Positions 4,878-24,427 of a DNA stretch of 64,000 nucleotides are shown one piece after another. Position numbers and translations under genes: made by a program. The stretch's first letter is position 1. Each line of letters opens with the position of its first letter. A model generated the notes under the pieces. It had not been told where the DNA came from. It made no database searches and saw only the letters and a list, made by a program, of their open reading frames with translations. The DNA lies in the IMG/VR virus record IMGVR_UViG_3300021979_000003, positions 32,001 through 96,000 of that record, one strand, 5' to 3'. The stretch is from a virus (Duplodnaviria > Caudoviricetes).

Positions 4878-5243
4878 TTATGTTAGAAGCTTCAAGTTTT
4901 TCAAATCATCACCAATGTCATCTTCATGAATTGGACCAATACCCAAACAAGTAACAGTAGGCTCTTTAAAAACAGTAAATCCCGCATCTTTGATGAAAGC
5001 CACGCCACATACATGATAATACGATTTCAGAAGTTCCTCAAGCTCTTCTTCAGTATCTACGACTAAGGTTATCTTTTTAGCGTGTTTGCTATCTATATAG
5101 GCTTGTGCAGCTTCTGGGAAGCGGCGTTGTGCGTCCCACCATGCATGTAGATATGCGTGACCTGCTTGAGAACAAAGTTTACCACGGTTGCCGTTCATTT
5201 TTTTCAATGCTTCTTTACACACTATATCATAAATTTTATACAT
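4878..5243 (-). CDS. pth2: peptidyl-tRNA hydrolase type 2
   Basis: GKLCSQAGHA, KKITL, DAGFT...TVTCLGIGP motifs of the PTH2 family. Confidence 0.9.
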   Translation of the reverse strand: MYKIYDIVCKEALKKMNGNRGKLCSQAGHAYLHAWWDAQRRFPEAAQAYIDSKHAKKITLVVDTEEELEELLKSYYHVCGVAFIKDAGFTVFKEPTVTCLGIGPIHEDDIGDDLKNLKLLT

Positions 5244-16849: not shown

Positions 16850-17704
16850 CTACGTCCAAAGTGTTGATCTTATATCGACCAACTTTTTGAGCATCTTGTT
16901 ATCTTCTTCATAGAAGTCTTGCTCTGAATCGTGCTTACTATTTATTTTATTTGAATACTCTCTGTATACATCTGGGTGATCTTTCTTAAACCTATCACTC
17001 AAGATGAAACACACACCGTATTCTTTTTCGTATTCTTCACGATCTTTAATCGACATAAACGCTTCAACTGAAATGTATTTTCGGTTGGGACGTAAATCGA
17101 CATACCAAACATAAAGCTCAAGTATTTCCTTGTACTTTTCTATCTGTCTGATTATGGAATTCTGCTCTGAAATACTGGATGCATCATATGGGTTCATGTC
17201 AATGTTTTTAGTTATATGCATGACACCAAGTTCTGGTGACCGGAACTTAGAACTTTGAATTCCAAGGAAATCAAAATGTTTCGAAATAATACGTTGCTTT
17301 TTATATGAGTCGTACAGTGGATGTGATTCATCCATGCAAATAAATTCCATCCATGCCAGTTCGCCTTCTACGAACTCTTTGAGAAGATTAAACATACCGT
17401 GAAACATACGGTCATCGACTTCATTGTAACCAACGCCCAGACCCGTATCAATCATGTGTGTTCTTTCAGTGATACGATGTGCAATTACATTACGTAAGTT
17501 GGGAATACGATCACTGATAAGGAATCGGTATGCACTATCAATCTTATCTGGAACTGTTTCTAAAAGAAAGTATCGAATCGGTGTATCTTCACGATATTTC
17601 TTGTAGAAATCGTTCCAACCATCATGAGAGAGTGCAAAGGGTTTCTCTGCACCGTACTTGTCTCTCAATTTTTCTACTACTTTACTCGAAATACTTCTAA
17701 TCAC
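16850..17704 (-). CDS. hypothetical protein
   Basis: Long ORF in operon. Confidence 0.75.
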   Translation of the reverse strand: MIRSISSKVVEKLRDKYGAEKPFALSHDGWNDFYKKYREDTPIRYFLLETVPDKIDSAYRFLISDRIPNLRNVIAHRITERTHMIDTGLGVGYNEVDDRMFHGMFNLLKEFVEGELAWMEFICMDESHPLYDSYKKQRIISKHFDFLGIQSSKFRSPELGVMHITKNIDMNPYDASSISEQNSIIRQIEKYKEILELYVWYVDLRPNRKYISVEAFMSIKDREEYEKEYGVCFILSDRFKKDHPDVYREYSNKINSKHDSEQDFYEEDNKMLKKLVDIRSTLWT

Positions 17705-18477
17705 ACATCAACCCCTAGTGATATATTTTTAATATGTTCGAATGATGGGTTATCAAACGAATCCACAATGGTTACATTTCGTTGTGCTTCGCGAGATTCC
17801 GGTTTATTTTTATCGGGTATCTTGTCCCACACTTCATCTTCAATAGGCATTGTAACCTGTTTACGGTAGATGTAAACCCCATAACGAAACTCGTTAGGAT
17901 AGTCATACCAATTAACATCTTTACGAAGACCCAACATGCTAATGACTTCAGTAGTCTTCTTCTTATGCATGTCACTACGACTTAGGTAATAATGACCAAC
18001 CATAGACACTGAGTTTCGCACACAGTCAACTTGCCTCCAATAAATGGAATTAACCGCTTCATTGTAGTCTGGAACGTTGAATGCACGAGCATCAAAGTGT
18101 GGAGTGGTTTCAGACACATGCTCAGGCCATTTCTTCATCGCTTCAATGACGAATTTAGATGTTGCCATAGCAGCCAGAACACTAACCACTTTTTGTTTCT
18201 TAGCATTGAAGAAAACATCTTTGCGATCAATAAGAATAGAAATCTCATCGCTTTGAGTATAGGCCAAGCAACCGCCACACTTTTCCATGACGTGCTTAGC
18301 CGTTGCAACCATCACTTCCCGAAAGTCTTCATCATACGGACGCTTGAACGGTTTGGTAAATTTACTGAAACCACGTCCGTCTAGACGTACAACGATAGGA
18401 AGGTTTGGATTAAGCTTTTCACGAGTTTCTTTTTTCTCGTACATTTTCATTCTATGTGCAAAATCAGTACTATCCAT
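17701..18477 (-). CDS. thg1: tRNA(His) guanylyltransferase / Thg1-like 3'-5' polymerase
   Basis: VRLDGRGFSKFT, YTQSDEISIL, FDARAF, YWRQ-x-DC-x-RNS. Confidence 0.92.
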   Translation of the reverse strand: MDSTDFAHRMKMYEKKETREKLNPNLPIVVRLDGRGFSKFTKPFKRPYDEDFREVMVATAKHVMEKCGGCLAYTQSDEISILIDRKDVFFNAKKQKVVSVLAAMATSKFVIEAMKKWPEHVSETTPHFDARAFNVPDYNEAVNSIYWRQVDCVRNSVSMVGHYYLSRSDMHKKKTTEVISMLGLRKDVNWYDYPNEFRYGVYIYRKQVTMPIEDEVWDKIPDKNKPESREAQRNVTIVDSFDNPSFEHIKNISLGVDV

Positions 18478-21572: not shown

Positions 21573-21920
21573 TCAGTTTAATATATCGGAGTTTATGATA
21601 TTAATTTCGATATTATACTTACTTCGCATAACTGCTCTCGCACCCATGATGTGGCGCACGGCAGCGACATTTGAAGAATGAACATAGATTCTTTTAAGCT
21701 TAGAAAGCTCGATATCTTTCCAATAAAGACGTTCTTCAATCCATTTGAAAATATCTTTCCCTTCAATCTCTTCGCCTAAATCATTGTCCAAGCTGACAAC
21801 TTCAAACGTGTTTGTTTGAAGAGCTTTAAAAGCATCGGCAGAATTCTTAACCCATACCCATTCCCCTTTAACGAACTCTTCTGGGTTTCGTAAATCATCG
21901 ACCCATAACATATTTGACAT
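21573..21920 (-). CDS. cyclic-phosphate-processing receiver-like domain protein
   Basis: LWVDDLR-x-P...W-xx-VKN...VSLDNDLG...G-xx-I-xx-WIE...VHS-x-N. Confidence 0.75.
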   Translation of the reverse strand: MSNMLWVDDLRNPEEFVKGEWVWVKNSADAFKALQTNTFEVVSLDNDLGEEIEGKDIFKWIEERLYWKDIELSKLKRIYVHSSNVAAVRHIMGARAVMRSKYNIEINIINSDILN

Positions 21921-21950
21921 AACAACCTCCAACGTACAATGGTACGTATA

Positions 21951-22712: not shown

Positions 22713-23060
22713 ATGAAAGCTGGTGACATTATACCACAGAAAGAAAAGATGGGTAAAATAATATCTCATATTGTTAAAAACATAGACAAGGATGGGAAAA
22801 CTGTCTTTACTGGTCAGGAATTGAAAGAGAAGTATGACTATGACTTTATTCATAGTGGGCTTATAGTTACAGTCGATAAGAACATTGATCCATCGCCTGA
22901 CAGAGAATATAAGGTAGATGAGTTCTGGGGTAATGAAATTAGAATTGATATCGCATCAAAGGGTCTATCCAACTCCCAGATCAAAGAGATATTGAAAAAA
23001 GCTTTTGATGAGTATGTAGAAGTTATAAATCGAAAAAGTCAGAAATACGAACAGTTATAA
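22713..23060 (+). CDS. hypothetical protein
   Basis: ORF with AAGGAG RBS and late promoter. Confidence 0.75.
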   Translation: MKAGDIIPQKEKMGKIISHIVKNIDKDGKTVFTGQELKEKYDYDFIHSGLIVTVDKNIDPSPDREYKVDEFWGNEIRIDIASKGLSNSQIKEILKKAFDEYVEVINRKSQKYEQL

Positions 23061-23084
23061 AAAATCCCCCATAGGTGGGGGATT
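23059..23084 (-). terminator. intrinsic terminator between convergent genes
   Basis: AATCCCCC/GGGGGATT hairpin with T run on the minus strand. Confidence 0.65.
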
Positions 23085-23173
23085 CGACATTATAGAACAC
23101 ACTTTGGCAGGCATCAAGCATTCTAATATTATTTATATAGCAATGAGTATCTTTATATAGTAAGTTTAAATTT

Positions 23174-23404
23174 TTATACTAAAGCATAGTTCAAAAAGAC
23201 ATAAAAAAAGTCTCTAAACTTGTCGTCTAAAGACTTTTTATGCTTCACCTTACGGCTATAGTTTTTGTCTCGCCCTTTCTTAGGCTCTTCGACTTTATGC
23301 TTAAACATCGGTGATGTTACTAAAGCTGCGTAATAATTATCTTTTATTGTACCTCTCCCAATATCATGCTTGTGTTTGGGAGTATTCTTTTTTCTCTTAC
23401 TCAT
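23174..23404 (-). CDS. arfA: alternative ribosome-rescue factor A homolog
   Basis: GTIKDNYYAALVTSPMFKHKVEEPKKG...YSRKVKH aligns with E. coli ArfA [37 protein letters not shown]; start at MSKRKK (AGGAG). Confidence 0.85.
   Translation of the reverse strand: MSKRKKNTPKHKHDIGRGTIKDNYYAALVTSPMFKHKVEEPKKGRDKNYSRKVKHKKSLDDKFRDFFYVFLNYALV
23200..23242 (-). promoter_or_regulatory. intragenic hairpin upstream of arfA stop codon (non-stop mRNA generator)
   Basis: 15-bp stem AAAAAGTCTTTAGAC-GACAA-GTTTAGAGACTTTTT with two G.U pairs, followed by more T residues. Confidence 0.6.
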
Positions 23405-23417
23405 TGCATTTCTCCTA

Positions 23418-23789
23418 TTACATTTTAAATCTGGCTCCCTCAATAAATTCTTCAAGTCTCTCAGGGTCCATTGAATTCAAGATACTTTCCAATGATTCAA
23501 AAGTTAGGTCGCCTGCATCATGAATGATAATAGTATCACCCATTGCAAACCTAGCTCTTAAGGTCATTGCATAACAAGTTCTTGTGTCGTTATTTATGGT
23601 TCCCTCTGGCATACCAAACTTTTTTTCTACCTTTTCAAAGTCTTTTGCCAAAAGCTTAAATATACCGTTGAGTTTACTACGTTCTTTAACATAGTCCATG
23701 TACGCAATTCTATGTAAAGAATCTACTTCCACCGACGTATTACTACCATAGCTACGAACCGGCCTGACAATTGCGATATATGATGCCAT
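23418..23789 (-). CDS. hypothetical protein
   Basis: ORF with AGGAG RBS. Confidence 0.75.
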   Translation of the reverse strand: MASYIAIVRPVRSYGSNTSVEVDSLHRIAYMDYVKERSKLNGIFKLLAKDFEKVEKKFGMPEGTINNDTRTCYAMTLRARFAMGDTIIIHDAGDLTFESLESILNSMDPERLEEFIEGARFKM

Positions 23790-23810: not shown

Positions 23811-23818
23811 TATAAATA
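23811..23818 (+). promoter_or_regulatory. T4-type late promoter
   Basis: TATAAATA upstream of endolysin. Confidence 0.65.
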
Positions 23819-23845
23819 TTACCATAGTATGCAAAGGGAGTCAAC

Positions 23846-24427
23846 ATGAGCAACTTTTTTGATAAATTTATGGAACTATTTAAACCCAAAAAGGAAGTTG
23901 AGATTCCATATCGTAAAATACATGGGGAACCAATTATGAACATTAATGAAATTAGAAGAACTGACAAATTGTCTGACAATTTTAGACTAAGCGAGTTTCT
24001 AAAATCTCAGACTGCATCACGTAGAGGTATTTCCAACTCTCCAACAGATGAACACCTAAAGAACATGAAAATACTCGTTGACAACGTTTTACAGCCATTG
24101 AGGGAAGATATTGGGAAGCCTCTAGTGATAACAAGCGGATATCGCTCAAAAGAGCTTAATGATGCCATTGGCGGCTCTGAAAACTCACAACACTCTAAGG
24201 GACAAGCTGCTGACATAGAGTGTTTCGGAATGTCTAACCGTGAATTGGCTATATTCATCAGAGATAATTACGAATTTGATCAACTAATTCTAGAGTTCTA
24301 TAATCCTGACGAAGGTGAAAACTCTGGATGGGTTCACGTGTCATTTAATGAAGACCATAACCGCAAGGAAGTTATGACTGCTCTTTCGCAAAATGGTAGC
24401 GTTAACTACCAGTATGGAATTTACTGA
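23846..24427 (+). CDS. peptidase M15A-family endolysin (Zn D-Ala-D-Ala peptidase fold)
   Basis: LSDNF-x-LSEF, ITSGYRS-xx-LN-x-AIGGS-xx-SQH-xx-GQAADI, GWVHVS. Confidence 0.9.
   Translation: MSNFFDKFMELFKPKKEVEIPYRKIHGEPIMNINEIRRTDKLSDNFRLSEFLKSQTASRRGISNSPTDEHLKNMKILVDNVLQPLREDIGKPLVITSGYRSKELNDAIGGSENSQHSKGQAADIECFGMSNRELAIFIRDNYEFDQLILEFYNPDEGENSGWVHVSFNEDHNRKEVMTALSQNGSVNYQYGIY

Follow-up and report, generated by a model that had tools for sequence, protein, structure and literature searches.

A phage-borne arfA gene with a conserved terminator-like hairpin inside its reading frame

The arfA gene and its neighbourhood

The window analysed here is a stretch of 64,000 nucleotides that corresponds to positions 32001-96000 of the 239-kb IMG/VR virus record IMGVR_UViG_3300021979_000003, a record with an estimated completeness of 54% (CheckV), a G+C content of 36%, and six tRNA genes. 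Judging from its tail-fibre proteins, DnaB-like and other helicases, and SbcC-like nuclease, the source is a tailed phage. The nearest cultured relative by helicase (56% identity) is the 440-kb Salicola phage SCTP-2, which has no Pfam ArfA match.

The arfA gene (23174..23404, minus strand) comprises 76 codons and a stop codon, running from an ATG at 23404-23402 to a TAA at 23176-23174, and is preceded by an AGGAG ribosome-binding site that can be read in the sequence 7 nt before the ATG (23412..23416, minus strand). Its product of 76 amino acids matches the Pfam family ArfA (PF03889) with an E-value of 1.5e-14 and 53.6 bits, against a cut-off of 25.5, and residues 12-56 cover the whole model (positions 1-44 of 44). 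A Pfam search at the genome level places the ArfA match at the same site with 53.5 bits, and ArfA was the sole family found when the protein was scanned against Pfam at E-values up to 0.1. The phage ArfA gene that the initial annotation had proposed here from the letters alone is thus borne out by the family model.

ArfA is a short peptide that becomes ordered only on the ribosome. Its N-terminal part makes contact with RF2 and includes A18 of the E. coli protein, an important residue that activates RF2; its basic C-terminal tail occupies the vacant mRNA channel. The core of the phage protein (residues 12-56; 23237..23371, minus strand) aligns to residues 6-46 of E. coli ArfA and includes both A27, the equivalent of A18, and the basic tail KKGRDKNYSRKVKH. 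In phmmer searches, residues 15-56 align with the chains of E. coli ArfA in the ribosome structures 5U4I, 5MDV, and 5H5U; in this alignment A27 falls on A18, and the motifs IKDN and AL..P.F are retained. Compared with the canonical KKGKGSYxRKxKH, the basic tail has one extra residue and carries R-D in place of K-G, giving GRDKN in the window, while the orthologues described below have GKDKN, GKGKS or GKGS. On this sequence evidence, the phage carries an orthologue of the ArfA of Gammaproteobacteria, with a predicted ribosome rescue activity. Neither PHROGs nor NCBIfam holds a family for the phage ArfA protein, Rfam gave nothing near threshold around the gene, a megablast of the locus against cultured phages returned no match, and a tblastn of the protein against the same phages gave weak hits only.

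Upstream of arfA there is a gene of 123 amino acids and unknown family (23418..23789, minus strand), whose stop codon lies 13 nt before the arfA ATG; given this spacing, both genes are probably co-transcribed. This gene is preceded by a sigma-70-like promoter, TTGACT-17-TAATAT with a TG (extended -10) (23816..23844, minus strand), recognised by consensus match only, which suggests a candidate early promoter of the arfA unit. The unit is flanked by two plus-strand genes, i.e., a convergent gene of 115 amino acids and unknown family (22713-23060) and an endolysin-like gene of the Peptidase_M15_3 family (23846-24427). Both carry the motif TATAAATA 24-28 nt before their start and are probably expressed late.

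The leftward arm that includes arfA also encodes a Pth2 (4878-5243), a Thg1-like enzyme (17701-18477), a cREC_REC protein with a cyclic-phosphate receiver domain (21573-21932), a Nudix protein, an HD-domain protein, and tRNA genes, and thus arfA sits among genes for translation rescue and RNA repair. Genes for tmRNA, SmpB, a release factor or RNase III were not found in the 239-kb record, itself estimated to be 54% complete, suggesting that any rescue circuit would use the factors of the host.

The altered KGKGS motif (GRDKN in the window) could be read in another way, namely as the mark of a peptide derived from ArfA that binds ribosomes and disturbs host translation, or the RF2 or tmRNA of the host, without any rescue benefit to the phage. 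We consider this very improbable, since the match extends over the entire Pfam model, the A18 equivalent is retained, syntenic orthologues with the canonical GKGS exist, and arfA shares its block with Pth2 and tRNA-repair genes, which support translation.

A hairpin conserved within the reading frame

The initial annotation had described a 15-bp hairpin with a U-rich 3' side right after the ...RKVKH core, about 30 nt before the stop and followed by the hydrophobic tail FFYVFLNYALV. We recovered this hairpin, named here T1, at exactly the same coordinates (23205..23239, minus strand; codons 56-67), with the tail as described and the TAA following the end of the stem after 28 nt. T1 is terminator-like and was characterised by terminator scan, folding, covariation, and recoding. 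It opens at the codon directly after the core and consists of a 5' arm (23239-23225), the loop GACAA (23224-23220), and a 3' arm (23219-23205). Five of the 15 pairs are A-U pairs contributed by the A-tract and the U-tract, and the other ten form the core, which includes two G-U pairs. No more than three pairs are G-C. The 3' arm merges into a run of seven U (23209-23203), followed by AUGUC and then by a run of five U.

An independent terminator scan picked up the same structure, with 15 pairs and a loop of 5. The core stem has a folding energy of -10.6 kcal/mol, or -15.9 kcal/mol with the A-U extension, and the 171-nt region with T1 folds with a z-score of -3.05; none of 200 shuffles folded as well. 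Such hairpins are scarce within genes: the whole 239-kb record has 21 terminator-like hairpins on both strands, two of them inside sense ORFs of at least 100 amino acids (211 kb coding). T1 is A+U-rich and has two G-U pairs, so that it could be leaky. With its A-tract before the stem it also looks bidirectional, and it could stop antisense transcription coming from the convergent late gene.

An exhaustive protein search yielded 54 relatives. Seven of them are encoded on jumbo-phage contigs in the same gene context, with identities of 93% (L003), 79% (L004), 67% (L008), and 47-57% (L009, L011, L012, and L014). Their common neighbours are Peptidase_M15_3, a convergent gene of 115-128 amino acids, cREC_REC, DUF3307, and Thg1, which indicates that these closest relatives are orthologues in related jumbo phages. 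A gene of 123-128 amino acids, matched by size and position, lies directly upstream of arfA in L003, L004, L012, and L014. A profile-based locus search of IMG/VR gave a single orthologue together with a false lead, a 45-kb contig filed as viral (L007/L017; IMGVR_UViG_2541047228_000006). We rejected the ArfA gene of the latter as a phage gene: it lies between iscS/iscU/iscA/hscB-like genes and gyrA, and this region is bacterial chromosome, probably flanking a prophage.

The hairpin is present in all eight copies of the gene, i.e., the window and the seven orthologues, always as a stem of 10-15 bp followed by six or seven U and always starting at the codon after RKxK[H/Y]. The stem sequences are wholly different between copies (e.g., GUCUUUAGAC, UCACUGA, CUCUCGGU, and GGUUCA), and the core stems range from -7.7 to -11.8 kcal/mol, each with its U-tract, which is within the range of intrinsic terminators. 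The recurrent K-K/N ... F-F residues of the proteins are nothing but the A-tract and the U-tract read as codons.

Covariation was scored on seven sequences, the window and six orthologues; L012, whose 3' arm was misplaced by MAFFT, was judged separately. In this set 94.2% of the cells are paired, and six pairs, with 12 cells, are altered on both sides. None of 500 shuffles reached the covariation score, and at most one such pair remained when the partner was shifted by 1-3 columns. We also fixed the peptide and redrew the codons from the usage of the phage itself, in 2000 trials per gene. The native folding energy was reached in 0-24 of the 2000 trials in seven of the eight genes, and in 60 of 2000 in L012. 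Synonymous recoding thus seldom folds as well, and the fold is therefore selected beyond the demands of the protein sequence.

The coding sequence itself is also under selection. From the start codon to the FF codons, hairpin included, there are 18 silent versus two amino-acid differences to L003, and 25 versus nine to L004. These ratios reflect strong purifying selection, on which ground we rejected the reading of the gene as a nonfunctional relic.

The drifting tail and the element behind arfA

Codons 68-76 of the window, which encode the tail YVFLNYALV (23177..23203, minus strand), are not conserved among the orthologues. The tails after the U-tract comprise 6-27 codons in the eight copies and are unrelated between subgroups. 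Even between the window and L003, whose proteins are 93% identical, an 11-nt indel causes the shared downstream DNA to be read in different frames, and in L009, L011, and L014 the tail ORF merely crosses a conserved non-coding element. Purifying selection up to the hairpin and none on the tail is the pattern to expect if ribosomes normally get no further than the hairpin; the tail codons are probably seldom translated. The hydrophobic character of the tail is weak evidence for a non-stop design, because a U-rich sequence encodes hydrophobic residues in any case and the tails of the orthologues differ. The central proposal of the initial annotation, a hairpin retained ahead of the stop as in the bacterial genes whose mRNA becomes non-stop, is supported at the level of sequence by the hairpin at the same codon in 8/8 orthologous copies, the covariation of its stem, the fold-biased codons, and the drift of the tail.

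The non-coding element just mentioned (23058..23137, minus strand) lies directly behind arfA in all eight orthologous copies. It consists of TATAAATA at 23137-23130 (CTAAATA in the distant copies), a conserved unpaired stretch of about 50 nt that includes TGCCTGCC and TAATGTCGAAT, and a G+C-rich terminator, T2 (stem 23082-23066, minus strand, followed by six U), identified by terminator scan and by its covarying stem. Comparison of the orthologues revealed no conserved pairing in the element beyond the T2 stem. T2 also lies behind the 115-aa gene and has its U-tract only on the arfA strand, where it would end the arfA transcripts that read through T1.

Elsewhere in the window, TATAAATA is located 18-30 nt before the gene starts at 22713, 23846, 42202, and 40640, as T4-type late promoters are. 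The motif is not enriched across the window (eight occurrences against 10 expected), and it is only the placement just before gene starts that suggests a late promoter. The element may thus correspond to a small RNA of about 65 nt that is made late and is linked to arfA. No second copy of the element was found in the phage record, and a search of IMG/VR with it returned the known relative only.

As an alternative, T1 may be just an ordinary, perhaps bidirectional, operon terminator, or a 3' hairpin that stabilises the mRNA and overlaps the ORF end by chance. ArfA would then be made constitutively, either full-length by read-through or released from its own non-stop mRNA, with no meaningful gating by tmRNA. 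T1 is indeed the first terminator after the two-gene unit, the symmetry of its A-tract and U-tract permits action on both strands, and the second terminator, T2, which is the stronger one and lies 120 nt downstream of T1, suggests read-through and counts against gating. Moreover, Pseudoalteromonas phage J2-1 retains an ungated ArfA (L043; MF988720.1 63035-63190), a protein of 51 residues, named as ArfA in its GenBank record MF988720.1, that ends at an ordinary stop codon overlapping the start of the next gene and has no hairpin. Gating is therefore dispensable for the keeping of an ArfA gene by a phage. However, an ordinary terminator would tolerate a stop codon placed ahead of its stem, and yet 8/8 copies keep the frame open through the hairpin, without any in-frame stop before its end and with the stop 19-82 nt further on. 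The start of the hairpin is always the codon directly behind the core. Any termination at T1 necessarily yields a transcript without a stop codon, and a tail that drifts and changes frame speaks against a functional full-length protein. For these reasons we consider a plain terminator function quite unlikely.

Proposed control of ArfA and comparison with known systems

The initial annotation had taken the control of bacterial arfA as established, which agrees with the reviewed literature. The hairpin of E. coli arfA leads to cleavage by RNase III or to premature termination, the product of the resulting non-stop mRNA is degraded after tagging by tmRNA, and full-length ArfA, which is rare, is unstable owing to its hydrophobic end, the expression of ArfA being tied to tmRNA capacity (PMC3989581, PMC8012679). 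The phage gene resembles that of E. coli ArfA (YhdL; PF03889; 5U4I, 5MDV, 5H5U, 5MGP) in its homologous core, in a hairpin located within the ORF, a few codons past ...KH, and in encoding a U-rich hydrophobic tail behind it. It differs in its stem, which is both shorter and perfect and leads into seven U, looking like a classical intrinsic terminator rather than like a mismatched RNase III substrate. The protein differs from E. coli ArfA in its basic motif, with the extra residue and an aspartate, in a basic N-terminal extension of 10 residues, and in being encoded by a jumbo phage. The truncated product predicted for the phage ends about 11-13 residues after KH, and truncated E. coli ArfA ends about 10 residues after it.

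A second known design is that of Bacillus subtilis brfA (yqkK), which has a rho-independent terminator within the ORF, nine codons before the stop; BrfA is an RF2-dependent factor made from a non-stop mRNA and removed by tmRNA tagging (PMC6881298). The phage gene is like brfA in having a terminator-like hairpin in the coding region about nine codons before the stop. The likeness concerns regulation only, as BrfA is a chromosomal, Gram-positive protein, and BrfA and ArfA are treated as evolutionarily unrelated (PMC6881298).

The nearest bacterial ArfA that we found, in a single-protein scan of genome contigs, belongs to a metagenome-assembled genome of the Alteromonadaceae (L018; 55% identity). 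The chromosomal ArfA proteins of this family share the motifs GRGTIKDNY and ALVTS with the phage protein. In 16 of the 18 Alteromonadaceae chromosomal arfA genes parsed (L019, L021, L024-L032, L034-L036, L038, and L039), the ORF ends in ...Y[LQ][ILM]AA and the stop codon is located within the loop of a long hairpin or next to it; unlike that of the phage, these genes have no internal terminator with a drifting tail. The end ...Y[LQ][ILM]AA is similar to the C-terminus of the ssrA degradation tag, and full-length Alteromonadaceae ArfA may carry its own degron.

On the basis of the family match, of a hairpin conserved through compensatory changes, and of the drifting tail, we infer the termination or cleavage at T1, the tagging by tmRNA, the dependence on RF2, and the timing as follows. 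The arfA gene would be transcribed probably early, jointly with the upstream 123-aa gene. At T1, the hairpin and the U-tract right after the core would most likely cause intrinsic termination and, less likely, serve as the target of a nuclease; either way, most arfA messages would end before the TAA, and the ribosomes that translate them would stall at the 3' end. The product of about 66-68 residues would be tagged for degradation as long as the tmRNA-SmpB of the host is not fully occupied. When trans-translation becomes saturated, for instance because mRNA is broken down on a large scale in infection or because host defences cleave RNA, ArfA would escape tagging and build up, bind the ribosomes stalled at the 3' end of stop-less mRNAs, recruit host release factor 2, and restore these ribosomes for phage protein synthesis. 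On the sequence evidence as a whole, we find it probable that an intragenic intrinsic terminator generates a non-stop arfA mRNA, so that ArfA accumulates only when the host tmRNA is overloaded.

The same regulatory outcome would be reached if host RNase III, or another double-strand-specific nuclease, cut the stem to produce the non-stop mRNA. The arfA mRNA of E. coli is cut by RNase III within the stem (PMC3989581), the phage stem reaches 15 bp when the A-U extensions are counted, and the long hairpins of the Alteromonadaceae chromosomal genes, which enclose the stop codon, have a layout that suits cleavage better than termination. Nevertheless, the invariant run of six or seven U behind every stem is a signature of intrinsic termination that is not needed for cutting, and the phage record has yielded no RNase III gene. 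In addition, RNase III favours about two helical turns, and T1, with fifteen pairs that are mostly A-U or G-U, is short for this enzyme. Cleavage as the source of the non-stop message thus appears unlikely to us, and intrinsic termination is considerably favoured over it by the perfect short stem, the invariant U-tract, and the nine tail codons, which bring the phage gene closest to the brfA type.

Since the bacterial non-stop design of arfA is textbook knowledge and phage ArfA genes have been annotated, the advance made here is incremental. ArfA-domain genes are found, as in the phage of the window, on other marine phages: J2-1, pelagiphage HTVC027P, whose gp30 was named ArfA (PMC12753301), and Citromicrobium phage RXM, whose g10 was named likewise (PMC8953757). 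The passages on ArfA in these two reports give the name only and contain nothing on a non-stop design, and our literature searches found no paper on the non-stop layout in phages. What is added is clean evidence for a selection that keeps the arfA hairpin within a phage clade, so that the tmRNA-gated, non-stop control of ArfA appears to be selected for in this clade of giant marine phages, beyond the mere carry-over of a host gene. If true, these phages would monitor the ribosome rescue capacity of the host and add their own back-up only upon its failure, and ribosome stalling on broken mRNAs would be a real bottleneck during infection. The pre-truncated, ungated ArfA of J2-1 and the gated clade would then represent a natural experiment on why gating is kept.

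We have also contemplated a broader role, in which the gated arfA would be the sensor arm of a phage counter-defence kit, switched on when RNA-cleaving defences, such as mRNA interferases and anticodon nucleases, exhaust tmRNA by way of non-stop ribosomes, with the RNA of about 65 nt behind the late-type TATAAATA promoter belonging to the same module. This extension is speculative and, on balance, doubtful.

Two further ArfA genes were observed in other arrangements. Pseudomonas phage pf16 carries an unannotated ArfA-like ORF (L042, about 131796-131915) whose stop codon lies inside a 9-bp hairpin, and which partly overlaps a hypothetical gene annotated on the opposite strand. On a 1.2-kb contig (L013:593-863), an ArfA gene (P0009) whose product is 63% identical to that of the window is located within an array of seven tRNA genes. 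Its ORF passes a hairpin and enters a tRNA-Lys(UUU), and tRNA processing would also remove the stop codon.
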